64,000 nucleotides of DNA from Verrucomicrobiaceae bacterium (GCA_027486585.1 JAIXOU010000119.1:17061-81060), one strand, 5' to 3'. Numbered from the stretch's first letter, positions 3,881 through 60,912 are shown. The notes: generated by a model from the sequence alone, not told the origin. Made by a program: numbers and translations.

Positions 3881-3920
3881 GATAAAGAATGTTGAAGTTT
3901 GAATCCCAGGTCAAAGAAGT

Positions 3921-3942
3921 TTGCCGCAACAAGTCCGTGACA
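3921..3942 (-). promoter_or_regulatory. Candidate Pho-box-like direct repeat in the 63-bp gap upstream of phnZ
   Basis: Minus strand TGTCACGGACT-TGTTGCGGCAA: 11-bp period, 6 of 8 identity between half-sites. Confidence 0.35.
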
Positions 3943-3943
3943 T

Positions 3944-20949: not shown

Positions 20950-22620
20950 TTATGGTTTCGGACGAACGAGCAAGACCTGGCCGTCTTCGGCGAACTCCAG
21001 CAATGCCTGTGCTTTGGTCAGGAAGCCGCCAGATCCGTTGGGTGCATTGGAGCGGTGTGCTGCTGCACCGTATGGATGGGCCTGGATATTGATCAGGAAG
21101 GTACCAGCGCCAAAGATGGCGTCTGTGCTGATGACACCCGAGCTCTCCCAGAGACCTGCGGAATAGGCGCTGGTCAAGTTACCGTCGCGACCAGCCACAT
21201 AGCCGTAGTTGAAGGTGGATTGCAGCTTTGCTGCGTAGGCGTTGTTGCGATTGAGGGTCCACATACCGGCGTTGCGGGCCTTGGCTGTATAGACGGCATT
21301 GGCTGGGGAATTGGTGTCTTCACAAACCACGATGAAATCCTTCGTGACAGCGATGTTGTCGATGCTCACTGGATAGTCTGGGCCAGTAAGGTCACCCTGT
21401 GTGTAGGTGCCAATGGCACCCGTGACTGGAGCGGTTAGGCGACCTGTGCTCGCGCCAGAATAGCTGCCTGCTGGGTAAATAATGGTGTCTGCATTATAGA
21501 CGATGTTCAGCGTGCCATTGGCCAGTGGGTTCACTGGATTCATGGTCAATTCATAGAGACGACCAAGGCGGTTCGGGCCCGAACCACCTGTAGTGGCAAG
21601 GAAAACGCTGCGAGTAGGCTGCGTGGGGTCAAATTCTGCGTCCTCGACACGCACTAGGCCGAAACCACCAACGACGTCTGCCTGAATGGAAAGTTGGGTC
21701 CCAGTGAGATTGGCTGCATTTGGGATCTCGACCCACTTCGTGGCAAGGCTGCCAGAGGTGAAGGTGCCTTCATTGTGCTGGGCTGCGTTTCCGCAGAGGA
21801 CATAGAGCTTACCACCCGTGAGACCATTTTTATCGAGCACGCTATTGGAGCGACGGAGCTTGGTGCCCACATACATATAAGTGTAGGAGACAGGGCTGGC
21901 GCTAGGTGCAGGGCCGTCTTCGGTAAAGATGACGACTGTTTTGTCATCACGACGCGGCTGCACGATAGTGGTCTCGCGGGCTGCACGGCCCATGGCTGGA
22001 ATCGTGTACATTTTGCCATCAGCAACGACCACGACTTGGGAACCATTTGCATTGTAGTTGCCAGTGCCAGACTCCTCGTTGGTGAAGTAGAGCGGGCGAT
22101 CCATGCCGTGCTCACGTCCGGCAAAAGAACCGGAGCAGAAACGGGTGAAGCCAGCGGTATCACCTTCGAGTGGTGGGCGCGTTCCCAGTGTGCCAGCGGC
22201 CTGGGTGTTTTCCAGGAACAGTTCTTTGTGAGCGACCGTACCATTAAGGATAGCGCCAGTGGTGCTATTCATGGAAAAGCGTGAAACGAAGGCACCCTTG
22301 TAGCGTGTCGAACCCGCGAATGGGCGGCTATTGCTAGTGCTATTGATTTCGTGGGCTACGAAAAGAATATTCTCATTCGTCACGCTATCTTTGTAGATGC
22401 CCATGGCATCAGGAATGCCACAGAAGGTGTAGTCAGTGGCTCCCACTGGGCCAGTGCCGGACGTCAGAGGAACACGATCACCCACAGTCACGATCGGGGT
22501 GAACGTGAAGTCTGAGGTCGGGGTGGCGCTGAGGTAGGAAGACTCGGAAGTCAGCACGCCCTGAGCGAAGGCGGATGTCGAGGCGAGCGCAAGGCCGGCC
22601 AGAAGTTTGGAGAAGTGCAT
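20950..22620 (-). CDS. phoX: PhoX-family (DUF839) alkaline phosphatase
   Basis: Ligand-pattern motifs in order: GIPDAMG, VAHE, RFCSG, TNEE, ARE, TED, RVED, IDNI, VCED, WESSG, NIQAH. Sec-type signal, no twin-Arg. Confidence 0.78.
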   Translation of the reverse strand: MHFSKLLAGLALASTSAFAQGVLTSESSYLSATPTSDFTFTPIVTVGDRVPLTSGTGPVGATDYTFCGIPDAMGIYKDSVTNENILFVAHEINSTSNSRPFAGSTRYKGAFVSRFSMNSTTGAILNGTVAHKELFLENTQAAGTLGTRPPLEGDTAGFTRFCSGSFAGREHGMDRPLYFTNEESGTGNYNANGSQVVVVADGKMYTIPAMGRAARETTIVQPRRDDKTVVIFTEDGPAPSASPVSYTYMYVGTKLRRSNSVLDKNGLTGGKLYVLCGNAAQHNEGTFTSGSLATKWVEIPNAANLTGTQLSIQADVVGGFGLVRVEDAEFDPTQPTRSVFLATTGGSGPNRLGRLYELTMNPVNPLANGTLNIVYNADTIIYPAGSYSGASTGRLTAPVTGAIGTYTQGDLTGPDYPVSIDNIAVTKDFIVVCEDTNSPANAVYTAKARNAGMWTLNRNNAYAAKLQSTFNYGYVAGRDGNLTSAYSAGLWESSGVISTDAIFGAGTFLINIQAHPYGAAAHRSNAPNGSGGFLTKAQALLEFAEDGQVLLVRPKP

Positions 22621-22668
22621 TTTGAGGATGGGTATTTGGGTTGACTGCGGGTTGAAGGCAGAAAGGGT

Positions 22669-23517
22669 TTAGGCGACGCGGCGGCGGCGGAAGAGGAGGC
22701 CCACAAAGGCCATGCCGACAAGCACTGCGCGTGAAGGCTCTGGGATTGCGGCGATGGAATGGACGCCTACACCCGAACCGAAATTGCCTACTGATGTGGC
22801 AGCGCCTGTCAGCGCGTCGATCGAGTACAGGGAAGAGGTGGCTCCATCTGTGGAGAGCGTGCCCCAGAGATTACCATTGGCATCCACTCCGAGACCGCCA
22901 AAGGAAACAATATCCAGGCCCAGTCCACCGACCGTGAAGAGTTCACTGAAATTCGGGTCGATGCTTCTCACCAGTGTATTCAGATTGGCATCAATAAAAT
23001 AGGTGCTACCGAAATCTGGGTCGATACCAAGCGCGAAGATTACTGGTGCGGTGCCGAAGTTTGCGTCACCAACACCATAGACTAAATTGCCATTGGTTGT
23101 GCGTGTGCCATTGGTGGAAAAGAGGACGTTTTCCCCGACATCACTCGCGAAGAGCATTTTATCAGTGATCGGGTCATAGGCAAAACCAGCGGCAAAACCC
23201 AGAGTGCTGAAAGTGCTGCTGATAAGAGTCGCAGCACCGCCTCTTGTGACGGAATAAAAGTTTGAGTTCGAGTCAATGCCGTAATGGGTGTCTGAGCTGG
23301 CGTGGTAGGTTAGGTTCAGCAGAACAGCGCCTGCATCGTTAGTTATACCGTCACTTGCCTTCAAGCCTGTGATGGCTGTGCTTGTGATGAAGGTAGCTGG
23401 AGCAGTCGTGTCAAAAGACACGAGATTATTGTCGGTGGTGACACCGAAGAAGGTAGCAGCCTGAGAAGAGACTGTGAGTGCCACGCAGGCAGCACTGAGG
23501 AAGAAGGAACGGTTCAT
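22669..23517 (-). CDS. PEP-CTERM-anchored DUF4394-like beta-propeller protein
   Basis: Signal peptide; FFGVTTDNNLVSFDT, GFAYDPITDK, SLYSIDALTGAAT; C-terminal IPEPSRAVLVGMAFVGLLFRRRRVA. Confidence 0.8.
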   Translation of the reverse strand: MNRSFFLSAACVALTVSSQAATFFGVTTDNNLVSFDTTAPATFITSTAITGLKASDGITNDAGAVLLNLTYHASSDTHYGIDSNSNFYSVTRGGAATLISSTFSTLGFAAGFAYDPITDKMLFASDVGENVLFSTNGTRTTNGNLVYGVGDANFGTAPVIFALGIDPDFGSTYFIDANLNTLVRSIDPNFSELFTVGGLGLDIVSFGGLGVDANGNLWGTLSTDGATSSLYSIDALTGAATSVGNFGSGVGVHSIAAIPEPSRAVLVGMAFVGLLFRRRRVA

Positions 23518-28832: not shown

Positions 28833-29075
28833 AGAAAAGGCAAAGGTACTCTCTAAGTCACAAGCCTGATGCAATCTCAGCAACTCATTGAGAGTGACAA
28901 TTATGGTTCATCAATGGCCCAGTCGTTAGGATGGTCGTTACCCTGATTCTCAATGACGATAGGCTTTGTGTGACGGGCCTGAAACATAAAGCGAAGTTCA
29001 ACAAAAAGGTCACATTGAAATGAGAGCGCTCATGAAAAGAGCCTCCATAAATCGCCGCGATTCAAAACGACATTT

Positions 29076-32000
29076 ATGAAATTAAGATCCTTGCTCCTCA
29101 AATCCTTGGCGGTCTCAGCCGGTTGCTTGCTCAGCCAAGCATTGAATGTGCAAGCTGCGCCGTTCACTTCTGGTAATCTGGTTGTGCTGCGCGTGGGCGA
29201 CGGCGGCACAACGCTCGGCACCGCTGCATCTGCGGTAAGTCTGGCGGAATACACGACAGCCACCAGTCAAGGTTCACCCGTGCAGACAATTAGCGTGGAT
29301 TCCACTGCTGCGGGTCTTACCTTGACTGGGAACTCAGCCACTCAAGGGACTCTCAATCGCTCTACTGATGGCACTCTTCTAACCTTCGGTGGGTATCGCA
29401 AAGCTGCGGGTGGTACCAACCCACAAAGCGATACGACAGCGACCACCAACCGTGTCGTCGGTTACATCGGAGTTAGCGGAAGCACTCCAAACGTGGCCAC
29501 CGCCGTCACCGATGGCTTTAGCGCGGACTCCTTTCGTAGCGTGATTACGGTGAATGGCAGCTCCTTCTACCTTTCCGGCGCAGGAGCTAGCGCCTCGGGT
29601 GGCGTGCGCTATTTGGGGACCGTAGGGTCGGCTACGACCTCTGTGCCGATCAATAATGGTAACACAGGCAATCCAAACACCCGACAGATCCTCATCCTCG
29701 GAGGTAACATCTACCTTTCATCTGGTGCTGGGAATCCAGGGATTGGAGTTCACAAAGTCGGCGCTGGATTGCCCACATCGGGTCCCCAGACATACACTGG
29801 GAGCATCACGACTACAGCGCAGATCCAATCATTTTATTTCACCAATCTTGGCAGCGGTAATAACTGGGCTTCCAGTGGCTTCGACACGGTTTACACGGCA
29901 GATGGTGCGAACCTTTCTAAGTTCTCGTTTAATGGCACGTCCTGGGCACTGAACAACGCAGTGGCAGTCACAGGCATCGGTAACATCATCGGCACGACGA
30001 GTGGTAGCACAGTCACCTTGTATGGCACAGACACGACGGCATCCACTGGCAGGATTATTTCCCTGACTGATACTGCTGGGTTCAATGTCAATAATAACGG
30101 CTCTGCCACCACACTCGCTACGGCTGGCACCAACTACGCATTCCGTGGCATCTCCTTTGCTCCTGTCGCAGTCGTCACTCCGGTCATCACTGGTACCGCG
30201 ACAGCAGCGGCTTTCACCACGACCTATGGCACTGTATCTGAGGTGCAGACTTTCCCTGTCACGGGCAGCAATCTCAGCGCTAACATCACCGCTACGGCGC
30301 CTGCGGGTTTTGAGGTCTCCAGTGACGGCACGGCCTTCGCAAGTACTGCCAGTTTCGTTCCATCTAGCGGCAGCGTGACCGGCTCACTCTCAGTTCGCTT
30401 GAGTGCCAACGCCGCTGTGCTTGGCAACTTGAATTCACAGATCATCGCGCTCACAAGCGCAGGTGCCACAACGGTAAACGTCACCACAGCAGCCACTGGT
30501 AACATCGTCTCAGCGAAAGCACTGACCGTCACGGCAAACGATGTCAGCAAGAATCTTAACGTCACGCTCACCGGCGGCGCTGGTTCCACAGCTTTCACCA
30601 GCAGCGGGCTGGCAAACAGCGAAACGATTGGCACTGTGACGATCACTTATGGCGCTGGCGCAGCGGCGGCTGATCCAGCGGGCACTTACGCGACTTCGGT
30701 CGTCGCATCGCTAGCTACAGGTGGCAGCTTCACGTCCTCCAATTACGCCATTACTTACATGGCTGGAACGATCACCGTGAATCCAGCGGCCTCACTGACG
30801 ATCAGTGGTTTAACTGCAGACAACAAACCATATGACCGAACCATCAGCGCAACGTTGAGTGGCACGCCAACTTTAGTGGGAGTGCTTCCAGCTGATGTCG
30901 GTAATGTCACGCTGAGCGGTACGCCGGTCGCCACTTTTGCATCGGCTGGTTTCGGCAATGGCATCGCAGTTACCGTTACGGGCTACACACTGTCCGGTTC
31001 TGCAGCAGGAAGCTACGTGCTGTCTCAGCCCACGGGTCTGAGTGCAAACATCACGCAGCTTGCGCTCACAGTCTCAGGCGCAGCTGTGACGCCAAAGCCC
31101 TTTGATGGCAACACGAACGCCATCATCACTGGCACGCTAACAGGTGTCATCGCCCCCGATGTCGTGACCTTTAATGGCAGCGGTAACTTTGTATCATCCG
31201 CCATCGGAACCGGCATTGCGGTGACTTCAACGAGCACCATCGGAGGTGCTAATGCAGGTAACTATGTTCTCACTCAACTTACTGGTCTCACTGGCGATAT
31301 CACCGCGCCCACATTAACCTCAGTGGACCTTTCTAACTATGTCCGTGTGGGTCGCCATAACTTGCCGGAGTATCGGCGCACGGCGCTGCCGGCAGGCACG
31401 CCAGTGAGCAATCTGCTATGTGATGAAGCTTCTGGGGTGGCCTACAATTGGGATACCGACACGCTCTTCATCTGCGGTGACGGTGGCCGTGCCATCACGC
31501 AAGTGACCAAGTCAGGCCAATTGGTGGACACGATGACACTGGAACTCAACGCAGCTAAACCACAGGGCACCGAGTTTTACGATCCAGAGGGCATCACCTA
31601 CATAGGCGGTGGTCAGTTTGTTTTCAGTGAGGAGCGTGAACGTCAGTTGGTGAAGTTCACCTATATGGGCGGCACTACACTGACTCGTGCAGCAGCACAG
31701 ACCGTGGATCTCGGCACCTTTGATGACAACACTGGGACTGAAGGCATGTCTTGGGACCCGCAAACTAATGGATTCATCGTGTTGAAGGAAAAGACACCGA
31801 TTGGTGTTTTCCAGACGAGCATTGATTGGAATGCAGGAACAGCGACCAATGGCTCGCCTACGACGGTGAACTCGACCAACCTCTTTGATACCACGCTGCT
31901 CGGCATGACGGATGTAGCGGATGTCTTTGCGCTCTCCAATTTGCCTTCCATGACGGGCCAAGCACAGGCTGGAAACCTGCTCATCCTGGGCCAAGAGAAT

Positions 32001-35000
32001 GCGCGTGTCGTGAATGTTGACCGTGCAGGAAACATCGTCAGCACACTCAACATCACTTCGGACGTGGGGAATCCTTTGAGTGCCGCTGACCAGCAGCCTG
32101 AAGGCATCACGATGGACCGCGCGGGCAACATCTATGTCGTCAATGAAAACGGCGGCGGCAGTATCGAGTTCCCACAACTTTGGGTCTATGCGCCTTCCAC
32201 AGTGCCGAATGCAGCTCCGACAGCCGTGGTGCTGAACAACGCAGTCAATTCTCTCCAGGAAAACACCAGTACGGCCTCACCGATCAAGGTGGGCGACATC
32301 GTCGTGACCGATGACGGACTTGGCACCAACGCGCTGAGCCTCACTGGAGCCGATGCGGCCTCCTTCCAGATCACTGGTAGTGCCCTGTATCTCAAATCGG
32401 GTGCCGTGCTCGATTTCGAGACGAAGACCAGCTACGCCGTCACCATCAATGCGGACGATACAACCGTTGGCTCTACGCCAGACGTCACGGTCAACTATAC
32501 GCTAAGCGTGACAGATCAGGTCGTCGAAACACCTGCGCCTCCTGCCCTCATCGTTACCGAAGTGGCTCCCTGGGCCAGCAGTAACGGCATAGTCGGCGGT
32601 GATTGGTTTGAAGTCACCAACGTCAGTGCCAACGCCGTGGACATCACCGGTTGGAAGATTGACGACAGTTCGAACGCTTTCGCAACCTCGCTCGCACTCA
32701 CTGGCATCACCAGCATCGCTGCGGGTGAGTCTGTGATCTTCCTCGAAAGCACCGTGGCCAATCAAGCCACCATCGTGGACACTTTCAAAACGGTGTGGTT
32801 CGGCGGCAGTCCTCCTGTGGGTCTGCAAGTCGGCACTTATCAAGGCTCCGGAGCCGGCCTCAGCACCGGTGGTGATGCGGTAAACCTCTTCACCGCTGGT
32901 GGCACACGTCACTCTGGCGTCAGCTTCGGTGCAGCCGATGTCGCGACGCCTTTCCAGACCTTCGACAACACCGCTGCGGCAAACGACACGGCCATCGCCT
33001 TGTTAAGCACAGTGGGAGTGAACGGAGCCTTCGCCGCTGCCACCAGCTCGGTTGAAATCGGCTCACCCGGCATCTCAAATCCTGGCGTGCTCCGCGTCAC
33101 GGAAGTCGCTCCCTGGAGCAGCGGCAACAGCCCTGTGGTCGCCGATTGGTTTGAAGTCACCAACACAGGCGCACGTGCCGTGGACATCACGGGTTGGAAA
33201 GTGGACGATAGCTCGGAGTCTCCTGCTGCTGCGCTCGCACTCGTTGGTATCACCAGCATCGCTCCGGGTGAATCCGTGATCTTCCTCGAGTCCGCCACAC
33301 CTGTGACCACCAAGGCCGCGTTCCTCTCGAACTGGTTCGGCGCAAGTCCTCCAGCCTCTCTGCAAGTCGGCAGCTACACTGGCGGCGGCATCGGCCTCAG
33401 CACGGGTGGTGACGCGGTTAATCTCTACGACACCAACAACGTGCGCCAAGCAAACGTGTCTTTCGGACTTTCACCTTCCACAGCTCCCTTCACGACCTTT
33501 GATAACGCGGCGGCAGCCAACGTCGCCGCTCTCACCCAGTTCAGCGTCGTCGGAGTCAATGGAGCCTTTGTTGCCGTCAATAGTGCGACTGAAGTCGGTT
33601 CACCTGGTGGACTCGCGTCGGCACCGATTGGAGCCTCGGTTGTGAGTATTGCCGCTGCCTCAGTCAATGAGGGTAATAGCGGCACGATTATCCTGAATCT
33701 ACCAGTGACGAGGACGAACACCTCCTCTGTTTTTACCGTGAACTATGCGGTCACTGGTGGCACCGCTACGGCTGGCACGGACTATACGCTGGCTGCTGGC
33801 ACGCTCAGCTTCACCTTCAATGGTGCTGCCACACAAGATATCGCCGTCACGGTGAATGGTGATACCACTATCGAGAGCAATGAAGTCGTCACCGTCACGC
33901 TGTCTGGAATCGTTAATGCCAATGGCACGACCACCCTCGGCACCGCTGCGGCGAATGGCACTGTCACCAATGACGACACCGTGCCGAACTCATTCCCGAG
34001 CAACGGCAGGATCACTTCTACGGTGAAAGGCTCCATCGATCTGGATGCCGCTCCTCTCGCTAGCACCAATGGTGCGGAAATCCCAGCCTTTGACCCGCTT
34101 TCTAAACGCGCTTTCACTTCATCCAACTCCGGCATCCAGGTGATCAATCTCACCAATCCAGCCGCCCCAGCTTTCATCAATACCATCGCTCCTGCCTCGC
34201 TCGGAGTCGCGGGGCTCACCAGCAATGATGTTTCCTCCGTGACGGTCAGAAAAGGCACCGGCGGAAATCCAAGCGTTCTCGCCGCTGCGATCATTTCCTC
34301 GCCTAAGTCCGCGCTTGGTTTTGTGATCTTTATCAATCCTGCCACTGGTGCCTTGATCGGTTCCAGTCAGGTCGGCGCGAATCCAGACCATATCGCTTTC
34401 AGCCCAGATGGCACGAAACTGCTCGTCGCTAATGAAGGTGAGCTGGATGCCGTAAACGCTGCACCCACCGTGATCGCAAGCGATACAACGATCGGCTCTG
34501 TGAGCATCATCAGTGTGCCGGTCGTCATCACCGGTGTGCCGACTTCGCTGCCTACCGCCACTGCAGATTTCACCGGCTATGATAGCCAATCAGCAGCCCT
34601 CAGCGCAGTAGGTGTCCGCATTTTCCAAGGCGGCAAGCCCTCCACTGATTTCGAGCCTGAATACTTTGCCATCAGCGCAGATAGCACCAAGGCGCTCGTT
34701 ACCCTTCAGGAGGCAAACGCTGTCGCCACTCTTGATCTCGCCACTGCCACTTTCACTTCCGTGGTGCCGCTTGGAAAAAAGAACTTCGCCACTGGCCGCC
34801 ACGATTTTAGCGATCGCGATGGTCTTACTGCCGCAGGCGCTGCTACCACGCTGGTGAATCCAACCACTGGCAGTCCTGTCTTTGGCCTCTATATGCCAGA
34901 TGCTGTAGCCTCCTACTCCGCCGCTGGACAGACCTACTACATCACCGCCAATGAGGGTGATGATCGCAACGATTTCTTTAATCCCGATGAAACCACCACT

Positions 35001-38000
35001 GTGGGTGCCGCTACTGGTTATACTCTCGATCCCACCGTATTTCCAAATGCCGCCGCGCTGAAAAACCAAGCCAGCCTTGGCCGCCTTACCGTTTGTAATT
35101 CCCCCGGCCTGCGCGGCGATACCGATGGTGATGGCGACATCGACGAGATCCTCAGCTACGGCGGTCGTTCCTTCTCCATCCTTGACTCCACTGGAGCCAT
35201 CATCTGGGATAGCGGTGACATGATCGAAAACATCATCGCTTCGCAGTTCCCAGCGAATTTTGATGACGGCCGCAGCGACAATAAAGGCCCCGAACCAGAA
35301 GGTGTCACCGTCGCCACCCTCGGCAGCCGCACCTACGCCTTCATCGGCCTGGAGCGCTCGCACATGACTCTCATGTTCGACGTCACCAATCCCGCCGCCG
35401 TCACCTTTGCCGGTGGACTGGTCCGCAGCGGCGATCTCAACCCCGAAGGCCTCGTGGTGGTTTCCGCCGCCGATAGTCCGACTGGCAAACCGCTCGTTCT
35501 CCAAGCCAGCGAAGTTTCCCAAACTCTCACCGTTTTTGAACTGAATCAAACCACCGACTACACCCTCCAAGTCCTCCACTACTACGGTGAGAGCGGCCTG
35601 CTCGGTATCCAGACCGCGCCGATCATGGGCGCGATGATCGACAGGTTCGATGACCAGTATGCGAACACGGTCGTCATCGGTGAGGGCGATAGCTTCATCC
35701 CTGGCCCTTGGCTGGTTGCTGGCGCTGATCCGGCCTTCAATGCGCTGCTCCACACCACAGCTCAAGTCTATTCCGGCAACAACGGTGCACTCGGCGTGGC
35801 AGGCACTTTCAATGCCACCGCGACAGCGACGACCGCTGTGCCCTTTGCCCGCGCTGACATCGCAATCATGAATGCCTTTGGCACTACTGTCTCGGCTCTC
35901 GGTAACCATGAGTTTGACCTTGGTTCACCCGTGCTAGCCAGTGCCATTTATCCTGCAACAACAACAGGCAGTAGCGCTGTGGGCAACTGGGTCGGTGCCA
36001 AGTTCCCGCACATCACAGCTAACCTCGACTTCTCCGCAGATAGCAGCCTGCGTGGTCGGGCTGACCTCAGTCTTGGCGGCGTAGCTGGCACGGCAAACAA
36101 TGCACCCAATGTGAATGCCATCACGGCAGGCACCATCGCCAATCTTGAGGTCACTAGTGTGAACATGCAGGCCAAGATCGCCCCCTATGCCATCAAGACG
36201 ATCAATGGCCAGCGCATCGGTTTTGTTGGAGCCACGACCTTTGACCTACTCTCGAAGTCTTCACCTAATGGCACGGTGCCAAAGGATGATGCCAATGCTT
36301 CCACCAGCGATCTTCAAGAAGTCGCCGCTTATCTGCAAGCTGCCGTCAATTCCCTGCAAGCACTCGGTGTGACCAAGATCATCCAAGTTGATCAGCTAGA
36401 TACCCTGCAACGCAACAAGGACCTCGCACCGCTCGTCTCCGGTATCGACATCGTCGTTGCTGGTGGTGGTCATGAACGCATGGGAGATGCCACGGATGTA
36501 CCTGTCGGATTCAATGGACACGATGCCGACTTCGTTGCTGATGCCTATCCAATCGTCACAGCTGGTGCCGATGGCCGCCCAGTGCTCATCGTCACCACCG
36601 ACACCGAGTACACATACCTCGGTCGCCTCGTCGCCGACTTTGATGCCGACGGCACCTTGATTGTGCCCAATCTGAATCCTGTGGTAAATGGAGCTTATGC
36701 TTCCACCGAAGCCAATCTTCAGGTTGCCTATGCTACCGCAAACAGCGCCGCTTCCATTATCGCCAGCAGCACTATTGGCAGTCAGGTCAAGACTATCATC
36801 GATGCGATCAACACAGTCGTCGTCACAAAAGACAGCAACGTCTATGGATATACCAACGTGTATCTTGAAGGTGATCGTGTTTTTGGTCGCACACAGGAAG
36901 TGAATCTCGGCAACATCACCGCTGATGCCAACGCCTGGAAGGGACGTAACGCGCTCGGCCTTGGCCTTGGGGATGCGGTATTCTCGCTGAAGAACGGCGG
37001 TGGCATCCGCGCCTCACTTGGCTCGGTGCTGGCGAATGGCACCAAGGTTGCACCGATCGCCAACCCGCTCACCGGCAAACTTGCAGGCGGCATTTCTCAG
37101 CTCGATGTCGAAAACGCGCTCCGTTTCGATAACAAGCTGATGGTCTTCGATGCTACCCCGCTCGGCCTCAAGAACATCCTCGAATTCGCTTCTGGCCTCA
37201 GTAGCGGGCCGACTGTCCAGAGTGGAGGTTACGCCCAAGTGGGTAACATCCGTTTCTCCTACAATTCTGCGCTGACTTCCGGCTCCAGACTGCGCTCCGC
37301 CGCCCTCGTCAATGAAGCCGGACAGATCGTCGCAAAAATCGTCGAGAATGGCGTAGTGCTTCCCACCGCTCCGGCCACTATCAAGTGCGTCGCACTCAGC
37401 TTCACTGCCAATGGCGGCGACAATTACCCGATCAAGTATCTCAACCCGCCGACCAATACGACTGTGAACAGCGAGACTTCGAACTTCCGCTTGTTGCTCA
37501 CCAATGGCGGTCTATCCGATCCGGTCGCTAGAAACTTAGACTTCACTGCCGCCAGTACCTACACCAGTCTTGGCATCACGGCGGCAGATGTGCTCGGTGA
37601 ACAAAAAGCCTTCCAGGACTTCCTCGCCGCACGTCATCCGAACCTTGCGACTGCTTACAATATCGTTGACACAACAGTGGCCCAGGACACGCGCATCCAG
37701 CAACTCGCCTTCCGCAGTGACACAGTCCTCAGCGGCCCGGCTACCTTTGCCTCATGGCTTGCGGCCAATGGTTTCTCTGGAAATGCTAGTGGTGACAGCG
37801 ACAATGATGGGGTGCCAGACTCACTGGAATACTTCTTCAATGCCAATCCAAACAGTAGTGCAGACCGTGACAACCTGCCTGCGCTCGTGACGAACGGCAG
37901 TGATTTGGAGTTCCGTTTTACTTACCTAAATACGACCACCTTGACCGGATTCCTCCAGTGCTCAGCCGATCTCACCAATTGGGTGAACGCGACACCTGGG

Positions 38001-38135
38001 GTGGATTATGAAGTCATCAGTGAAACCGTAAACGGTGTCGAGACAACGGTGCGTTATCGAGTCTTTAGTGATCCTGCTCCTGTTGGTTCAAACCCAGCCA
38101 AGTTCTTCAAGATTGCCGTTCCTGGCGCACCCTAA
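29076..38135 (+). CDS. Giant (3019 aa) secreted multi-domain phosphatase/5'-nucleotidase
   Basis: Signal peptide; N-terminal propeller-like region; MBG/YDG-like stalk repeats; SdiA-regulated-like propeller (EASGVAYN, DPEGIT); cadherin-like; two lamin-tail-like domains; Calx-beta-like; choice-of-anchor-I-like (GAEIPAFDP, VANEGE, DDGRSDNKGPEPEG); 5'-nucleotidase N and C (GNHEFDLG, GGGHE, EVNLGNITAD, KNGGGIRAS); DSDNDG C-terminal domain. Confidence 0.88.
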   Translation: MKLRSLLLKSLAVSAGCLLSQALNVQAAPFTSGNLVVLRVGDGGTTLGTAASAVSLAEYTTATSQGSPVQTISVDSTAAGLTLTGNSATQGTLNRSTDGTLLTFGGYRKAAGGTNPQSDTTATTNRVVGYIGVSGSTPNVATAVTDGFSADSFRSVITVNGSSFYLSGAGASASGGVRYLGTVGSATTSVPINNGNTGNPNTRQILILGGNIYLSSGAGNPGIGVHKVGAGLPTSGPQTYTGSITTTAQIQSFYFTNLGSGNNWASSGFDTVYTADGANLSKFSFNGTSWALNNAVAVTGIGNIIGTTSGSTVTLYGTDTTASTGRIISLTDTAGFNVNNNGSATTLATAGTNYAFRGISFAPVAVVTPVITGTATAAAFTTTYGTVSEVQTFPVTGSNLSANITATAPAGFEVSSDGTAFASTASFVPSSGSVTGSLSVRLSANAAVLGNLNSQIIALTSAGATTVNVTTAATGNIVSAKALTVTANDVSKNLNVTLTGGAGSTAFTSSGLANSETIGTVTITYGAGAAAADPAGTYATSVVASLATGGSFTSSNYAITYMAGTITVNPAASLTISGLTADNKPYDRTISATLSGTPTLVGVLPADVGNVTLSGTPVATFASAGFGNGIAVTVTGYTLSGSAAGSYVLSQPTGLSANITQLALTVSGAAVTPKPFDGNTNAIITGTLTGVIAPDVVTFNGSGNFVSSAIGTGIAVTSTSTIGGANAGNYVLTQLTGLTGDITAPTLTSVDLSNYVRVGRHNLPEYRRTALPAGTPVSNLLCDEASGVAYNWDTDTLFICGDGGRAITQVTKSGQLVDTMTLELNAAKPQGTEFYDPEGITYIGGGQFVFSEERERQLVKFTYMGGTTLTRAAAQTVDLGTFDDNTGTEGMSWDPQTNGFIVLKEKTPIGVFQTSIDWNAGTATNGSPTTVNSTNLFDTTLLGMTDVADVFALSNLPSMTGQAQAGNLLILGQENARVVNVDRAGNIVSTLNITSDVGNPLSAADQQPEGITMDRAGNIYVVNENGGGSIEFPQLWVYAPSTVPNAAPTAVVLNNAVNSLQENTSTASPIKVGDIVVTDDGLGTNALSLTGADAASFQITGSALYLKSGAVLDFETKTSYAVTINADDTTVGSTPDVTVNYTLSVTDQVVETPAPPALIVTEVAPWASSNGIVGGDWFEVTNVSANAVDITGWKIDDSSNAFATSLALTGITSIAAGESVIFLESTVANQATIVDTFKTVWFGGSPPVGLQVGTYQGSGAGLSTGGDAVNLFTAGGTRHSGVSFGAADVATPFQTFDNTAAANDTAIALLSTVGVNGAFAAATSSVEIGSPGISNPGVLRVTEVAPWSSGNSPVVADWFEVTNTGARAVDITGWKVDDSSESPAAALALVGITSIAPGESVIFLESATPVTTKAAFLSNWFGASPPASLQVGSYTGGGIGLSTGGDAVNLYDTNNVRQANVSFGLSPSTAPFTTFDNAAAANVAALTQFSVVGVNGAFVAVNSATEVGSPGGLASAPIGASVVSIAAASVNEGNSGTIILNLPVTRTNTSSVFTVNYAVTGGTATAGTDYTLAAGTLSFTFNGAATQDIAVTVNGDTTIESNEVVTVTLSGIVNANGTTTLGTAAANGTVTNDDTVPNSFPSNGRITSTVKGSIDLDAAPLASTNGAEIPAFDPLSKRAFTSSNSGIQVINLTNPAAPAFINTIAPASLGVAGLTSNDVSSVTVRKGTGGNPSVLAAAIISSPKSALGFVIFINPATGALIGSSQVGANPDHIAFSPDGTKLLVANEGELDAVNAAPTVIASDTTIGSVSIISVPVVITGVPTSLPTATADFTGYDSQSAALSAVGVRIFQGGKPSTDFEPEYFAISADSTKALVTLQEANAVATLDLATATFTSVVPLGKKNFATGRHDFSDRDGLTAAGAATTLVNPTTGSPVFGLYMPDAVASYSAAGQTYYITANEGDDRNDFFNPDETTTVGAATGYTLDPTVFPNAAALKNQASLGRLTVCNSPGLRGDTDGDGDIDEILSYGGRSFSILDSTGAIIWDSGDMIENIIASQFPANFDDGRSDNKGPEPEGVTVATLGSRTYAFIGLERSHMTLMFDVTNPAAVTFAGGLVRSGDLNPEGLVVVSAADSPTGKPLVLQASEVSQTLTVFELNQTTDYTLQVLHYYGESGLLGIQTAPIMGAMIDRFDDQYANTVVIGEGDSFIPGPWLVAGADPAFNALLHTTAQVYSGNNGALGVAGTFNATATATTAVPFARADIAIMNAFGTTVSALGNHEFDLGSPVLASAIYPATTTGSSAVGNWVGAKFPHITANLDFSADSSLRGRADLSLGGVAGTANNAPNVNAITAGTIANLEVTSVNMQAKIAPYAIKTINGQRIGFVGATTFDLLSKSSPNGTVPKDDANASTSDLQEVAAYLQAAVNSLQALGVTKIIQVDQLDTLQRNKDLAPLVSGIDIVVAGGGHERMGDATDVPVGFNGHDADFVADAYPIVTAGADGRPVLIVTTDTEYTYLGRLVADFDADGTLIVPNLNPVVNGAYASTEANLQVAYATANSAASIIASSTIGSQVKTIIDAINTVVVTKDSNVYGYTNVYLEGDRVFGRTQEVNLGNITADANAWKGRNALGLGLGDAVFSLKNGGGIRASLGSVLANGTKVAPIANPLTGKLAGGISQLDVENALRFDNKLMVFDATPLGLKNILEFASGLSSGPTVQSGGYAQVGNIRFSYNSALTSGSRLRSAALVNEAGQIVAKIVENGVVLPTAPATIKCVALSFTANGGDNYPIKYLNPPTNTTVNSETSNFRLLLTNGGLSDPVARNLDFTAASTYTSLGITAADVLGEQKAFQDFLAARHPNLATAYNIVDTTVAQDTRIQQLAFRSDTVLSGPATFASWLAANGFSGNASGDSDNDGVPDSLEYFFNANPNSSADRDNLPALVTNGSDLEFRFTYLNTTTLTGFLQCSADLTNWVNATPGVDYEVISETVNGVETTVRYRVFSDPAPVGSNPAKFFKIAVPGAP
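32559..33640 (+). repeat. Tandem duplication of a lamin-tail-like domain (543-bp period) inside the giant gene
   Basis: EVAPW...DWFEVTN...VDITGWK.DDS...GLSTGGDAVNL occurs twice, starting at 32559 and 33102, with obvious DNA-level similarity. Confidence 0.85.
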
Positions 38136-38186: not shown

Positions 38187-38840
38187 ATGCATTGCACAGC
38201 CAAAGCCAACTCCGTTGACTCAGTTGACTCAGTTGATTCCAAATGGGATCGTCTGTATCAGCGTCATCAGTTGAGTCTAGTAAGGTATGCATGTCTGCGA
38301 GGTTGTGACGAACACGAGGCCTGGGATGTTGTTCAGGAACTCTTCCTGAGAGTTCATCGACGTGGCATGCTGGTGTCGTTAATGGCAAAGTCAGAAGAAA
38401 TGCAGCGTGCTTGGCTCATGCGGACGTTGCTTTGGATGATTCATAACGCACGTCGCCATAAGCTTGCCATTCGGCGTTCGGGTGGCTATATCGCTGAGTC
38501 GCTCGATTCATTGATGGAATCTGGCCAAGAAGTAGCCAGTCATAGCACTCCTGCCTCTGAGTATGATCGTGCATGGGCCGCTTCAGTCATGGAGCGCGGC
38601 ATTTGCCGATTACGCGGCCTTTTGACATCCAGTGCCTGGCAAAGCATCGAGCCCTCTCTGTTAGGGCAAAGCGCTAGCGAAATTGATCAACATCCTAACC
38701 CTAAACTACGTGTTGCTGTTCATCGAGCTCGCAATCGTCTCCGCGGGCTGCTAGCTATTGAGGCTGGGGCTGGATCCAATTTGAGTTTTGGTAAATCACT
38801 GCTTTTGCAGGCAGCGGCAGATCATTTTCATTTCTGCTGA
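38187..38840 (+). CDS. ECF-type sigma-70 factor (PVC-type), possibly degenerate
   Basis: EAWDVVQELF (region 2), EYDRAWAASV, LRVAVHRARNRLR (region 4); short HTH spacing; N-terminal VDS repeat. Confidence 0.65.
   Translation: MHCTAKANSVDSVDSVDSKWDRLYQRHQLSLVRYACLRGCDEHEAWDVVQELFLRVHRRGMLVSLMAKSEEMQRAWLMRTLLWMIHNARRHKLAIRRSGGYIAESLDSLMESGQEVASHSTPASEYDRAWAASVMERGICRLRGLLTSSAWQSIEPSLLGQSASEIDQHPNPKLRVAVHRARNRLRGLLAIEAGAGSNLSFGKSLLLQAAADHFHFC
38214..38240 (+). repeat. 9-bp tandem microrepeat (GTTGACTCA x2 + GTTGATTCC), in-frame VDS x3
   Basis: Seen directly in sequence. Confidence 0.85.
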
Positions 38841-44839: not shown

Positions 44840-44991
44840 CGGGGAGAGGAAAGTCAGCTTCGCTGGCCTCGTGGGCATAGACACCAAAGACGCGCTCCAC
44901 CATCTTCAGACGAAGTCAGTGTCAGTAAAGTTATTTGACCAACAATCAAATAAACGAAAAAGAAGCTGTATCGTTGCGTTCCCAAGAACGC

Positions 44992-47340
44992 ATGACATCA
45001 AAAATCACTCGTCGCAGCAGTTTTAAACTCATCACGGCCGGGACACTCGCAGGCATCGCGGGCCGACAGACTCCTGCGACTGCCGCTGAAATAGTTAAGA
45101 CTGACTGGGCCAAAACCCAGGATCGCGTGTTTCTCGGTGGCGAATTTTGGGCGAACCCGATGGAGGACTGGCGTGTGAGTGACGGCGGTGCTGAGTGCTT
45201 GAATTCAGGGGCTGGTCGCAGTGTGCATTCGCTCACTCATCAGATGACCCAAAAGGGTGCTTTTACCATGGCGGTCACACTCACTCGGCTAGAGGTGAAG
45301 AATACGGATGGCGGGGCTGGCTTCCGCATTGGGATTCGTAGTGAGCTGAATGAACATCGCAGCAATTGTTTTGTGCTCAAAGGCTTCGATGCAGGCTGGC
45401 AGGGTGATCAACTCATCCTGGGCACCCAAAAGACGGACGTTCCAGATGGCGCGAAGCTCAATCAAATGCGCCTCACCCTCAAAGGCGCGCCTGAAGGCGA
45501 GAAATGTGTTTTAACGCTCATCGCTACAAACACAAAGAACGGCAAAGAAATTGCCACACTCACTCAATCTGTCTTGGCCGAAAAGCTGCTCGGCAATGTC
45601 TCGCTAGCCAACAATTTCAACGAAGGTGCCGCCGGTGCCGCAAAGAAAAAGCGCAAGGGCAAAGAGCCAGCCAATATGGGCGGTGGTCGCTATCGTTTTC
45701 AAAATTGGACACTTGAAGGTGACGCCTTCACTGTGAGTGAGACGAACCGCTTCGGTCCCATCTTATGGTCCATGTATTCGCTAAGTGACTCACGCACGCC
45801 GGAAGGCTTTGTGATGAAAATCAGCGTTCTCACCGGACCCATGGGTGCAAAGGACAGCCAAGATGTCGAGCTTCACGTTCAGCAGAACGGAGCTTGGAAG
45901 TCGCTAGGCAAGGCCAAGCTCGATCCTGATGCCTGGGTGGCCACCTTTCGTGTTGCGAACTGGGATGCAAAGACGGCCACGCCCTACAAGCTCGTGTATC
46001 GCGAAAAGCATAAAGATGGCAGTGAAACACCGAATGAATGGACCGGCACCATTAAAGCCAATCCTGAAGGTCGCCCATTGCGCATGGCCGCACTGACTTG
46101 CCAGAACGATTACGGTTTCCCTTATGCGCCCGTGGCTGAAAATTTGGTTAAACTTGATCCTGATCTCGTCTTCTTTTCAGGCGATCAGATCTATGAGAAC
46201 CACGGTGGTTTTGGACTCATTCGTGAACCCGCAGAACTCGCGATCCTCAACTACTTGCGTAAATTTTATCAGCACGGCTGGGCTTTCCGTGAAGTCATGC
46301 GCAATGCACCGACGCTTTGTCTGCCCGATGACCATGACGTTTTCCAAGGCAACATCTGGGGTGAAGGCGGTAAGAAGATGGACGTGGGTGACAGCGGAGC
46401 TTCCTCCAAGGGTGGCTACATCGAGCCGGCACGCATGGTCAATGCCGTGCACAAAACGAATGTTGCACATCACCCCGACGCCTTTGATTCAAAACCCATC
46501 TTGCAAGACATCAGCGTCTATTATGGCGACATGGTTTATGGTGGCGTGAGCTTTGCCATCATCGCGGATCGTCAGTGGAAAAGTGGTCCTGAACATGTCG
46601 AAACAGGTGGCGGCAGAGCTGACCACGTCACCGATGCAAACTTCGATACGGATGCGCTCGACAAACCAGGGCTTGTCATGCTGGGCGAGCGTCAGGAAGC
46701 CTTTCTCAAACAATGGTCAGAGGACTGGCGCGGTCACACTCTTAAAGCGCTGCTTAGTCAAACCGTTTTCATCAATGCCGCTACGCATCATGGCAGCGAG
46801 GATGGCTATTTGAAAGCGGACCTCGATTCAGGTGGCTGGCCGCAAACACCGCGTAATCGCGCCATCGACATCCTCCGCCCTTCCATGGCTTTGCACATCA
46901 ATGGTGACCAGCATTTGACTACACTGGCTCAATACGGCGTAGATAAACAGCGCGACAGCAATTGGTCCTTCTGCACACCTGCCATCTCCGCGGGTTATCC
47001 GCGCTGGTGGCGGCCTGACGACATGAAAATGCCGCACTCGAATCGGCCCAAACATGGACAGGAAAACACCGGCGAATATCTCGATGGACTCGGCAACAAA
47101 GCCTACATTTACGCCGTCGGAAATCCACAAGTCGGTAAAGCCCCAAATCGCTATGACAAAGCTCATGAAAAGGCCAGTGGTTTTGGCTTTATCACCTTCG
47201 ATACCGATAAAAAGACTTACTTCATCGAGTCCTTCCGCTTTCTCATTGATGCCACTGATGGCAAACCGACTAACCAATTCCCAGGTTGGCCGGTAACCAT
47301 TCATCAAAAGGAAAACCGTGGTGAAAACATCCTGGGTTGA
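44992..47340 (+). CDS. Tat-exported PhoD-family metallophosphatase with N-terminal extension
   Basis: ITRRSSFK Tat motif; CQND, GDQIYE, PDDHDV, INGDQH PhoD ligand motifs. ATG 44992 preferred. Confidence 0.82.
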
Positions 47341-58339: not shown

Positions 58340-59464
58340 ATGCCTACCAAGAAACTCAATATTGCCGTCGTCGGCCTCGGATTCGGGGCAGAGTTCATCC
58401 CGATCTGGCAGCGTCATCCAAACACGAACTGCTATGCCATTTGTCAGCGTGACCCGAAAAAGCTGAAAACGATTGGAGACGCCTTTGGCATTGAAGTTCG
58501 GTATACGGACTTCCGTGAAATGCTGAAGGATCCAAAGATTGATGCTGTGCATATCAATTCCCCCATCCCCGATCATGGTTGGATGTCGATCGAGGCCTTG
58601 AAAGCTGGCAAACATGTCGCCTGCACAGTGCCGATGGCGACGAGTATCGAGGATTGCAAAAAGATCTGTGATCTTGTGAAGAAGACCGGCCTGAAATACA
58701 TGATGATGGAAACCGTCGTCTATGCCCGTGAGTTCCTCTTCATGAAGGAGCAATATCAAAAGGGCAAACTGGGTAAGCTACAGTTCCTCCAGTCGAGCCA
58801 TCAGCAGGATATGGATGGCTGGCCAAATTACTGGCCTGGCCTGCCGCCAATGTGGTATGCCACCCATTGTGTGGGTCCAGTCGTGGCTTTGGCAGGCACG
58901 CCTGCGGAATACGTGAGCTGCTTTGGCTCAGGCACCATCCGTCCTGAATTGGCCAAGCAATATGGCTCTCCTTTTGCGGTCGAAACGGCCCATGTGAAGT
59001 TCAAGGACAGCGACCTCAGCGCCCGCGTGATTCGCAGCCTCTTTGATACGGCTCGTCAGTATCGTGAAAGCATTGATGTCTATGGTGATAAGGCCTCCAT
59101 CGAGTGGCCGCTTATCGAGCATGAGCCGCTGGTTTTCCACACGGCCAAGCTGCCTGAGCATAAAATCCCAAAGCTGGTGAAGTCTCCTGATTACGCCAAA
59201 CTGCTGCCTAAGAGCATCCGAGATTTTACCACCAAGGGTGTCTATGATCTTGGCAAAAAAACCCATTTGAGTTTCGTCCAAGGCAGTGGTCACGGCGGCA
59301 GTCATCCTCACCTTGCCCACGAGTTTGCCATGGCTCTGACAGAAGGTCGTGATCCCTTCCCGAACGCTAAGCAGTCAGCGAACTGGACCTGTGTCGGCCT
59401 CTGTGCCCATGAGTCCGCTTTGGCGGGTGGCAAGATCGTTAAGCTTCCTGCTTTTACGGTTTAA
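58340..59464 (+). CDS. Gfo/Idh/MocA-family NAD(P)-dependent oxidoreductase
   Basis: IAVVGLGFG, DAVHINSP..H, AGKHVACTVPMA, YATH, GGSHPHL. Confidence 0.88.
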   Translation: MPTKKLNIAVVGLGFGAEFIPIWQRHPNTNCYAICQRDPKKLKTIGDAFGIEVRYTDFREMLKDPKIDAVHINSPIPDHGWMSIEALKAGKHVACTVPMATSIEDCKKICDLVKKTGLKYMMMETVVYAREFLFMKEQYQKGKLGKLQFLQSSHQQDMDGWPNYWPGLPPMWYATHCVGPVVALAGTPAEYVSCFGSGTIRPELAKQYGSPFAVETAHVKFKDSDLSARVIRSLFDTARQYRESIDVYGDKASIEWPLIEHEPLVFHTAKLPEHKIPKLVKSPDYAKLLPKSIRDFTTKGVYDLGKKTHLSFVQGSGHGGSHPHLAHEFAMALTEGRDPFPNAKQSANWTCVGLCAHESALAGGKIVKLPAFTV

Positions 59465-60912
59465 ACTGACTTTGGAATCAGCATTTCAATTGTCAGCCCA
59501 TTGGGCTGGCGGAGTTTTGCTGTCACCGTGCCGCCGCAGGCTTCAATGCAGCGCTTAACAATGGCGAGGCCGAGACCACTGCCACCTGTGTTTCTGCCGC
59601 GTGCGGCTTCTGGCCGGTAGAATGGCTCGAAGAGGCGTGGCAAGGTCTCTGGCGGCACACCAGGGCCTTGGTCGAGAATTTGAATGCAGAGGTGGTTGTC
59701 TCGGGTTCCAGCTTTGATTTCAATGCCTGATGCGTAACGCACGGCATTGCGTAAAACATTGCCAAAAGCTCGATCCAAGGCAGACCGAAGTGTGCGTATT
59801 TCTAGGTCATCGACTTCCAGTTGGATTTCAATATCTGGGGCCTCGCGGGTAATGACCTCATGGATGAGCTCACGTAAATGGATGTTCTCAGGTGCCTCGC
59901 GCTCGGGCAGAGTTTCGGCTTTTGAAAAAGCCAGGACTTCTTCGACGAGTTTGGCCATGTGCTGGAGTTCATTGTCGAGCTTCTTCAGGTAAGCCTCCTG
60001 ATCTGGTGTGCTACGCAGCTCTACCACACCAAGCGCCATTTGCATCCGAGCGATGGGGCTACATAACTCGTGGGCGACATCTGCCGTGATGCGGCGTTGT
60101 TGAGCGACGTAGTCACCCAGTTGAGCCGCCATGGTGTTTACAGATGTGGCTAGTTCACCGAGTTCGTCGTGGCGCACGCGAGTGATGCGTTCGTCGAATT
60201 TGCCATGAGCAATGCGACCAGCGGCTTCGTTAAGACCTCGGATGAAACCACTGATGCCACGCACAAAAGGCATCCAGATCAATCCTGAGATGAGTAGTGC
60301 AGCGACGATGAGTCCCAACCATGGACGGAGATCAAAGAATAAGCCGCCACCGCTGATCGAATCTGAAGCCATGACCAATGTCAGTGTTTTACCATCTTGC
60401 TGAACGAGGTCGAGGTGAATGCCCGCCCAATATCGCACGGGAGTCCCTGCGCGCATCATGAAACGCGGTTTCGGAGGTGCATCGGCAGGTCGTTTTGAAA
60501 TTGGGCCGGGCTGACGTCGGGGTGAGTTTTCTCCAGCAGGCCGACGGTCGATTAATTTCGGCAGAACTTCGCTTGGTATCTTAATCTTGGCACCATGAAT
60601 TTGCACGCCTTGCCTATCGAATAGGCCAAAGACGACACCATGTTCTTCATCGTGAACTCTGAGTCGAGCTTGCCACTCACTTTCCGGTAAACGAGAGAGT
60701 TCATGCGTCACACTTTCGCCAATGGCCGAGATTCGTTCGCCTGGCTCACCGGAGAGCATCCAGTCGAGACCGAGTTTGAACTCTGCTTTAAGGAAGCCAA
60801 AGCCCAACAGAGCTAAGACAAGGAGATTCACGATGAACCAGAGCAGGATCTTCGAATAAAGCGGGAGATGAAGCTTTGGCTTTCTAGGCTGGGCTTTGGG
60901 TAAAGCGTTCAT
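59461..60912 (-). CDS. HAMP-domain sensor histidine kinase (CpxA-like)
   Basis: Two TM helices, HAMP (DELGELA), ADVAHELCSP, NVLRNAVRY, DQGPG, GGSGLGLAI. Confidence 0.92.
   Translation of the reverse strand: MNALPKAQPRKPKLHLPLYSKILLWFIVNLLVLALLGFGFLKAEFKLGLDWMLSGEPGERISAIGESVTHELSRLPESEWQARLRVHDEEHGVVFGLFDRQGVQIHGAKIKIPSEVLPKLIDRRPAGENSPRRQPGPISKRPADAPPKPRFMMRAGTPVRYWAGIHLDLVQQDGKTLTLVMASDSISGGGLFFDLRPWLGLIVAALLISGLIWMPFVRGISGFIRGLNEAAGRIAHGKFDERITRVRHDELGELATSVNTMAAQLGDYVAQQRRITADVAHELCSPIARMQMALGVVELRSTPDQEAYLKKLDNELQHMAKLVEEVLAFSKAETLPEREAPENIHLRELIHEVITREAPDIEIQLEVDDLEIRTLRSALDRAFGNVLRNAVRYASGIEIKAGTRDNHLCIQILDQGPGVPPETLPRLFEPFYRPEAARGRNTGGSGLGLAIVKRCIEACGGTVTAKLRQPNGLTIEMLIPKSV

Follow-up and report, generated by a model that had tools for sequence, protein, structure and literature searches.

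A single uninterrupted open reading frame (ORF), without internal stop, was analyzed at positions 29076-38135 (+) of a 64,000-nucleotide stretch of DNA from a Verrucomicrobiaceae bacterium (GCA_027486585.1, JAIXOU010000119.1:17061-81060; the whole stretch is called the window below). The encoded protein of 3019 amino acids (aa) is probably a Sec-exported, extracellular and modular hydrolase of the atypical PhoA kind that would act on nucleotides and organic phosphate, a prediction from sequence that we put forward with moderate confidence. Phosphate scavenging is the best reading, given the PhoD, PhoX, EEP and phytase-like cassettes carried by relatives and the phnX, PhoX-like and PhoD-like genes in the neighbourhood. 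The length of the ORF and the at least 670 homologues of the whole protein among giant proteins mean that it cannot be a chance reading frame. The protein belongs to a large family, so far uncharacterised, that is related to the atypical alkaline phosphatase of cyanobacteria, here with a predicted non-canonical metal site and extra modules.

Architecture and the candidate catalytic pair

Domain calls were made with Pfam and NCBIfam profiles against curated cut-offs. The signal peptide is followed by an N-terminal beta-propeller, a YDG/MBG stalk, an SdiA-regulated/YjiK propeller, a weakly matched cadherin-like domain, two lamin tail domains (LTDs) and a Calx-beta domain, and then by a choice-of-anchor I propeller, a 5'-nucleotidase and a C-terminal beta-rich domain (Table 1). 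There are three beta-propellers, one each of an unnamed N-terminal family, the SdiA/YjiK type and the choice-of-anchor I type, while Ca-binding-type elements are present as Calx-beta and DxDxDG loops. Translation and the profile matches bear out the 3019-aa architecture described in the initial annotation, with boundaries close to those proposed. In particular, YDG was found twice in the stalk, with MBG_2 weak, the SdiA-regulated propeller, both LTDs, Calx-beta and choice-of-anchor I were matched by Pfam, and the nucleotidase was recovered through 5_nucleotid_C and through alignment of its N-domain to solved 5'-nucleotidases. The cadherin-like domain is the least secure of the proposed modules, its PF00028 match lying under the cut-off; PF00028 also figures in the precomputed domain lists of several homologues. 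The freshwater source genome (6.5 Mb, 147 contigs, 97% complete), which also encodes planctomycete/verrucomicrobial PSD/PSCyt and PATR proteins, holds no other choice-of-anchor I, 5'-nucleotidase-family or SdiA-type propeller gene.

The choice-of-anchor I propeller matches PF22494 over profile positions 11-489 of 489 (E 1.2e-86, 292 bits against a cut-off of 32) and NF038117 at 422 bits (cut-off 300), which places it in the family. It carries the invariant acidic motifs ANEGE (1785-1789), EPEY (1860-1863), FSDRDG, ANEGDDRND (1958-1966), GDTDGDGDIDE (2014-2024) and SDNKGPEPEG (2067-2076). An alignment over three phyla revealed ANEGE, DxEPEY, SDxD, NEGDxR, the GDxDxDGDxD loop, RxDNKxxExE and ER to be invariant, and every one of the 13 acidic motifs tested is invariant across Verrucomicrobiota, Alphaproteobacteria and cyanobacteria. 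As far as sequence can tell, they match the motifs rich in D/E that have been reported from PhoA-atypical enzymes, as well as the predicted Ca2+ sites of MSP130. Foldseek related the AlphaFold2 model (predicted local distance difference test, pLDDT, 82; predicted template-modelling score, pTM, 0.87) best to generic seven-bladed WD40/YVTN propellers in the PDB. A seven-bladed propeller with D/E motifs is indicated, the blade number being taken from these matches and not from coordinates. This type of propeller has been tied to the 145-kDa atypical phoA of PCC 7942, to algal PhoA-atypical and to animal MSP130 (PMC3387780; PMC4548154; PMC11878542), and Ca2+ sites have been predicted for the MSP130 proteins, themselves choice-of-anchor I propellers (PMC11878542).

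Residues of the nucleotidase module were mapped by aligning E. coli ushA with 45 family members (MAFFT). The N-domain contains LHYYGESG (E2172), GEGD (D2205), GNHEFD (N2277, H2278, D2281), VDQLD (Q2440), GGGHE (H2466) and FNGHD (H2482). The catalytic His-Asp dyad of GNHEFD (aa 2276-2281; H2278, D2281) is invariant in all homologues examined. In the C-terminal domain (PF02872, aa 2603-2785, 44.3 bits against a cut-off of 23.6), R2601, R2605, R2645, F2684, N2686, F2776 and D2782 correspond to UshA R375, R379, R410, F429, N431, F498 and D504 and do not vary among 45 homologues, leaving the three phosphate-binding Arg and both base-stacking Phe of the 5'-nucleotidase/UshA family intact. UshA, T. 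thermophilus 2z1a and human CD73 share with the module the two-domain layout, GNHEFD, the bridging Asp and the phosphate-binding Arg and base-stacking Phe of the C-domain. In contrast to them, the 3019-aa protein has YYGES for DxH, Gln for H217, Gly for H252 and extra invariant FxGH and RxGD loops. In a PDB profile search, solved 5'-nucleotidases aligned with the N-domain only from GNHEFD onward, motif I being left unaligned.

Two subtypes of the nucleotidase were distinguished, type A with LH(Y/F)YGESG (94 sequences, the 3019-aa protein included) and type B with LH(L/F)(A/S)D(A/G)EAG (115 sequences). The cultured species Prosthecobacter debontii and P. fusiformis have homologues of type B (P0065, P0067). 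E2172, H2482 of FxGH, and RxGD are invariant across both, FxGH and RxGD being specific to the family. Among the canonical metal ligands in UshA numbering, D84 (D2205) and N116 (N2277) are kept. H217 is replaced by Q2440, with His retained in type B, H252 by Gly in both types, and Q254 by H2466, where type B has Asn as in CD73. D41 is absent here and retained in type B, while H43 has, according to the alignment chosen, either no counterpart or the invariant E2172 in its place, as MAFFT and an ungapped reading disagree on whether E2172 occupies the H43 position. With two of seven ligands kept, the chemistry is non-canonical. The invariant His-Asp dyad, the substrate-binding residues and the family-specific FxGH and RxGD argue for a remodelled, selected active site that would still bind nucleotide, rather than a decayed one. 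Furthermore, carboxylate/amide ligands (E2172, Q2440) at positions where His is usual point to a hard metal, Ca2+ or Mg2+, and not to Zn, Mn or Fe, and we infer that the remodelled site holds such a harder metal.

Relatives, cassettes and known systems

The choice-of-anchor I and 5'-nucleotidase pair forms a conserved unit of ~1300 aa found in at least 951 proteins, typically of 1300-2000 aa, from Verrucomicrobiota, Alphaproteobacteria (in versions with RTX tails) and freshwater cyanobacteria. Some of these proteins are named 'alkaline phosphatase' in UniRef. The resemblance of the pair to the atypical cyanobacterial PhoA, put forward in the initial annotation, holds up: both families were detected in the Synechococcus elongatus control genome, the UniRef names agree, and the atypical phoA of S. 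elongatus is the founding member of this kind of protein (PMC3387780; PMC4548154). Phosphate limitation in Synechocystis brings a rise in phoA (sll0654) and in nucH, a nuclease that bears LTDs (PMC3600050).

PhoA of PCC 7942 and sll0654 are, like the 3019-aa protein, large and exported and combine choice-of-anchor I with a UshA-like 5'-nucleotidase region, the PCC 7942 protein being compared here by family matches and literature. Homologues of the ~1300-aa unit in freshwater Cyanobium/Synechococcus reach up to 57% identity. However, the 3019-aa protein is more than twice as long as cyanobacterial PhoA, with ~1650 extra N-terminal residues (propeller, stalk, SdiA, LTDs, Calx-beta), and the cyanobacterial propeller lies in the C-terminal half (PMC3387780), an order opposite to the one observed here. 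Shewanella ExeM and Synechocystis NucH resemble it as secreted phosphoesterases that bear lamin tail domains at the N-terminus. Relatives such as P0069 are annotated as ExeM/NucH and have an EEP domain, whereas Pfam detected neither EEP (PF03372) nor an OB-fold nuclease domain in the 3019-aa protein, which places it outside the ExeM/NucH nucleases. The animal and algal MSP130/PhoA-atypical proteins also possess a choice-of-anchor I propeller in which acidic motifs are conserved (PMC11878542; PMC4548154) but, unlike the 3019-aa protein, are single-domain, GPI-anchored and devoid of a nucleotidase partner.

Relatives of the gene come almost only from lakes and ponds, the closest being from pond and lake metagenome-assembled genomes (MAGs) of Verrucomicrobiaceae, Prosthecobacter and Akkermansiaceae. 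They differ in the cassettes that they carry. In P0018, whose nucleotidase is 93% identical, PhoD stands in place of Calx-beta and choice-of-anchor I and a C-terminal Phytase-like domain is added; P0004 combines PhoD and choice-of-anchor I in one protein; and the Cyanobium protein P0069 adds PhoX and an EEP nuclease on the same scaffold. By family assignment, every optional cassette on the relatives' scaffold is a phosphoesterase. The SdiA propeller and the two LTDs form a separate conserved block, which elsewhere accompanies EEP nucleases and PhoD. The 3019-aa protein is itself a mosaic, each module having its nearest relative (92-99% identity) in a protein of another architecture, the remaining modules of which are only 55-70% identical (P0004, P0006, P0007, P0009, P0015, P0018, P0022). 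The closest modules are the N-terminal propeller of P0006 (93%), LTD1 of P0022 (99%), choice-of-anchor I of P0004/P0015 (95%) and the 5'-nucleotidase of P0018. Such unlike identities between modules point to cassette recombination within Verrucomicrobiaceae, though they could be due to assembly chimeras.

In a maximum-likelihood tree inferred for the nucleotidase module, with type B as the root, Alphaproteobacteria, cyanobacteria and Verrucomicrobiota formed separate clades. That of the Verrucomicrobiota is supported at 100/100, and the 3019-aa protein lies deep within it, apart from the cyanobacterial clade and beside a Verrucomicrobiaceae pond MAG (90% identity). The cyanobacterial origin that the initial annotation had proposed to examine is therefore not supported, at least as a recent event. 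In the same tree, the module of L040, labelled Candidatus Sulfopaludibacter (Acidobacteriota), nests in the Cyanobium/Synechococcus clade, which points to mis-binning of the contig or to recent transfer. In P0069 (Cyanobium gracile, 4298 aa) and in L025, L026 and L042, choice-of-anchor I is interrupted by a ~330-aa insert. This picocyanobacterial insert looks Phytase-like by eye, and PF13449 is in the precomputed Pfam list of P0069, a polypeptide that also bears PhoX, EEP nuclease, SdiA and LTDs.

Weighing the readings and a possible mechanism

A number of observations weigh against a phosphate-scavenging hydrolase. The canonical dimetal ligand set is changed at five of seven positions, and Pfam Metallophos gives no match on the nucleotidase N-domain, a further difference from UshA, 2z1a and CD73. 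Given these two results, the module could bind nucleotides without hydrolysing them, and the catalytic competence assumed in the initial annotation is called into question by the ligand changes. Neither PhoX nor phytase was among the top 50 Foldseek PDB hits of choice-of-anchor I, so that its catalytic role is taken from the literature and not from structure. In cyanobacterial PhoA, the activity may lie in either half of the protein. No Pho-box-like motif common to the upstream regions of the 3019-aa gene, pstS, the DUF4394-PhoX operon, the phosphonate cluster and the PhoD-like gene exceeded the shuffled controls in an exhaustive search of 9-mers with one mismatch. Finally, no recognised sorting or anchoring signal (PEP-CTERM, LPXTG, type IX secretion system C-terminal domain, lipoprotein) was found in the protein by Pfam and NCBIfam, which leaves the surface attachment claimed in the initial annotation unproven.

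The protein may instead be a surface adhesin or matrix protein with a role in attachment or biofilms, in which enzyme-like modules have turned into binding modules. Ca2+ would be bound by the propellers and the Calx-beta or cadherin-like domains, and nucleotides or extracellular DNA by the nucleotidase-like module and the LTDs, without hydrolysis. The changed metal ligands would fit this, as would the YDG/MBG stalk, the cadherin-like and Calx-beta domains of adhesin type, the occurrence of the N-terminal propeller family in PEP-CTERM surface proteins, and the link to Ca2+ homeostasis of CarP, the sole SdiA-regulated propeller with functional data (PMC10574481). However, the strictly invariant GNHEFD dyad and the new invariant His, Asp and Glu around the site fit remodelling rather than decay, and the optional cassettes of relatives are bona fide hydrolases (PhoD, PhoX, EEP). 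We thus regard an adhesin as improbable.

Degradation of extracellular nucleic acids and nucleotides could also serve mainly carbon, nitrogen and nucleoside salvage, or remodelling of extracellular DNA in biofilms, with expression independent of phosphate. The LTD and SdiA block co-occurs with ExeM/NucH-type EEP nucleases in relatives, Shewanella ExeM affects biofilms more than phosphorus nutrition (PMC6085458), and the gene combines the lack of a detectable upstream Pho box with a private ECF-type sigma factor downstream. It should be noted, however, that Pfam assigned no nuclease domain to the 3019-aa protein itself, that its neighbourhood and cassette partners are phosphorus-specific (phnX, PhoX, PhoD) and that the cyanobacterial relatives are Pho-regulon members (PMC3600050); we give this explanation little credence. 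A role in calcium or mineral handling, through local control of phosphate and Ca2+ on the cell surface and by analogy with MSP130 and its predicted Ca2+ sites (PMC11878542), would suit the many DxDxDG and Calx-beta type elements but is highly improbable in view of the absence of mineralisation genes nearby, the fusion of the propeller to a nucleotide-binding module and a neighbourhood concerned with phosphorus acquisition.

If the protein is a phosphate-scavenging hydrolase, the stalk and the N-terminal propeller would keep the enzyme at the cell, close to it or on a substrate particle, and the choice-of-anchor I and 5'-nucleotidase pair would constitute the catalytic core. The choice-of-anchor I propeller, acidic and probably loaded with Ca2+, would act as a broad phosphomonoesterase, as in PhoA-atypical enzymes, while the 5'-nucleotidase module would bind nucleotides and hydrolyse them via the conserved His-Asp dyad, with E2172 and Q2440 as putative ligands of a hard metal such as Ca2+ or Mg2+. 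The SdiA propeller and the two LTDs would probably bind or process a polymeric substrate, namely extracellular DNA or RNA. The genome carries a single pstSCAB locus, and its PstSCAB system would import the released phosphate. A more far-reaching proposal, which we consider unlikely, is that YYGES (type A) defines a new metal-site class in the 5'-nucleotidase fold, based on carboxylate/amide ligands and probably Ca2+/Mg2+, in tandem with choice-of-anchor I, and that the SdiA and LTD block is an unrecognised module binding or cleaving nucleic acids. Together they would make up a Zn/Fe-independent line from DNA/RNA to phosphate, rebuilt in freshwater Verrucomicrobiota by near-identical cassette swaps.

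In many lakes, production is limited by phosphorus. The Verrucomicrobiota are among the abundant heterotrophs of fresh water, and their enzymes for phosphorus acquisition have, to our knowledge, hardly been studied. If active, such giant proteins would provide a large and so far unmeasured part of 'alkaline phosphatase' and 5'-nucleotidase activity, missed by marker-gene surveys of phoA, phoD and phoX, and the remodelled metal site could uncouple the use of organic phosphorus from Zn or Fe supply. Near-identical cassettes in different architectures would, in that case, also offer a natural experiment on the assembly of multi-enzyme proteins.

Accessory modules, neighbourhood and regulation

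The cleavage site of the signal peptide is of the AXA type, without a canonical lipobox, and the equivalent signal peptide of homologue P0006 contains no Cys. The N-terminal ~340 residues have no Pfam or NCBIfam match. An AlphaFold2 model built from an alignment of 41 members is all-beta and confident (pLDDT 93.9, pTM 0.93), and its best PDB neighbours in Foldseek are YWTD/LRP and lactonase-type propellers (TM-score about 0.5), so the guess of a propeller-like region in the initial annotation was right. The family comprises 2514 cluster representatives at E<=1e-3. Many members are stand-alone proteins of ~380 aa ending in PEP-CTERM, which marks them as surface proteins, and others are repeats within giant proteins; two paralogues occur in the same genome (G000 C94:36317-37321 and C51:12537-13541).

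The SdiA-type propeller matches PDB 3qqz (E. coli YjiK, of undefined function) at E 7e-15 and is overlapped by PF13449 'Phytase-like' (E 4e-11, 43.7 bits over 120 residues). It shares with YjiK and P. aeruginosa CarP a full-length PF06977 match. Those are small stand-alone periplasmic proteins without known catalysis, whereas the propeller is here one module of a giant protein. The only functional report on this domain concerns CarP and Ca2+ homeostasis (PMC10574481). Of the multi-substrate phosphorus assembly suggested in the initial annotation, the phosphorus theme stands, in view of the cassette swaps and the phosphorus-gene neighbours, while phytate as a substrate finds no support. Pfam and NCBIfam matched the 3019-aa protein to no phytase family, which sets it outside the beta-propeller phytases. 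'Phytase-like' (PF13449) is just what that family is called, and no activity is known for the SdiA/YjiK propeller. LTD1 and LTD2 are 62% identical and were found as an internal duplicate by tblastn.

The C-terminal 230 aa match no Pfam or NCBIfam family. The idea that this domain is a genome-wide sorting tag was rejected, since the genome contains a single weak paralogue only.

Table 1. Modules of the 3019-aa protein and features of its surroundings in the window.
Feature	aa	Position	Strand	Basis or remark
Sec-type signal peptide	1-27	29076..29156	+	MKLRSLLLKSLAVSAGCLLSQALNVQA followed by AP; begins MKLRS, ends NVQA; predicted cleavage after VQA; read from translation
N-terminal beta-propeller, unnamed domain family	28-370	29157..30185	+	AlphaFold2 model, Foldseek
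Ig-like stalk, weak MBG_2 and two YDG	about 371-745	30186..31310	+	Pfam; YDG E 1.9e-25, two stretches; MBG_2 E 8.6e-4, under cut-off
SdiA-regulated/YjiK-type beta-propeller	781-1024	31416..32147	+	PF06977 E 5.4e-43, profile positions 21-241 of 249
Cadherin-like beta-sandwich, weakly supported	about 1045-1150	32208..32525	+	PF00028 E 0.0019, 19 bits vs cut-off 28.8
Two lamin tail domains	about 1160-1300 and 1335-1462	32553..33461	+	PF00932 E 3e-25, two stretches
Calx-beta	1529-1615	33660..33920	+	PF03160 E 3.9e-10, 40 bits vs cut-off 27
Choice-of-anchor I (PhoA-atypical/MSP130-type) beta-propeller	1663-2156	34062..35543	+	PF22494, NF038117
5'-nucleotidase N-domain, calcineurin-like fold, remodelled metal site		35553..36755	+	aligns to PDB 2z1a, CD73, UshA
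5'-nucleotidase C-terminal substrate-binding domain and family-specific extension	about 2561-2890	36756..37745	+	PF02872
DxDxDG-type acidic loop and beta-rich domain, ends KFFKIAVPGAP		37758..38132	+	common to some homologues, 70-87% identity
Divergent intergenic region, 243 bp		28833..29075	.	blocks conserved upstream of P0006 orthologue
Divergent ECF-type sigma factor, possibly co-transcribed		38187..38840	+	52 bp after stop; NCBIfam sigma-70/ECF region-2 matches, E 6e-7, under cut-offs
phnX (phosphonoacetaldehyde hydrolase)		4966-5745		313 bits; inside phosphonate cluster
phnX region		2043-6863		also holds FAD oxidoreductase, ADH, DUF5690
PhoX-like gene region		20950-23517		PhoX-like gene preceded by PEP-CTERM DUF4394 protein
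PhoD-like gene region		44935-47340		801-aa PhoD-like protein after LysR regulator

The window is rich in genes for phosphorus acquisition (Table 1). It also contains an OmpR/CpxR-like response regulator and two histidine kinases (59461-61607 and 62502-63902 (-)). The two-component system at 59461-61607 was considered as a PhoBR candidate and rejected, its best matches being to OmpR/CpxR types, all under equivalog cut-offs. The PhoB/PhoR models score well under their cut-offs, and the system therefore cannot be assigned as the Pho two-component system. GTGACA/TGTGAC-like hexamers were noticed in the search for a Pho box, but the 9-mer comparison described above yielded nothing beyond shuffled controls.

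No sigma-70 consensus promoter was found in the region upstream of the 3019-aa gene, and a consensus scan found no terminator-like site between this gene and the sigma gene. The conserved upstream blocks (window 28960-29040; L004 9900-9990) consist of TGTGTGAC, ~37 nt further GTCAC(A/C)TTGAAAT, and then CATAAA. TGTGTGAC and GTCAC(A/C)TTGAAAT form an imperfect inverted pair, which was matched to no nameable regulator site. The sigma gene is 52% identical to the gene at the same position after the P0006 orthologue in L004 (20174-20764). Its conservation downstream, together with the common upstream blocks, hints at a dedicated regulation of the 3019-aa gene. In L005, a PEP-CTERM protein is encoded in place of the downstream sigma gene.

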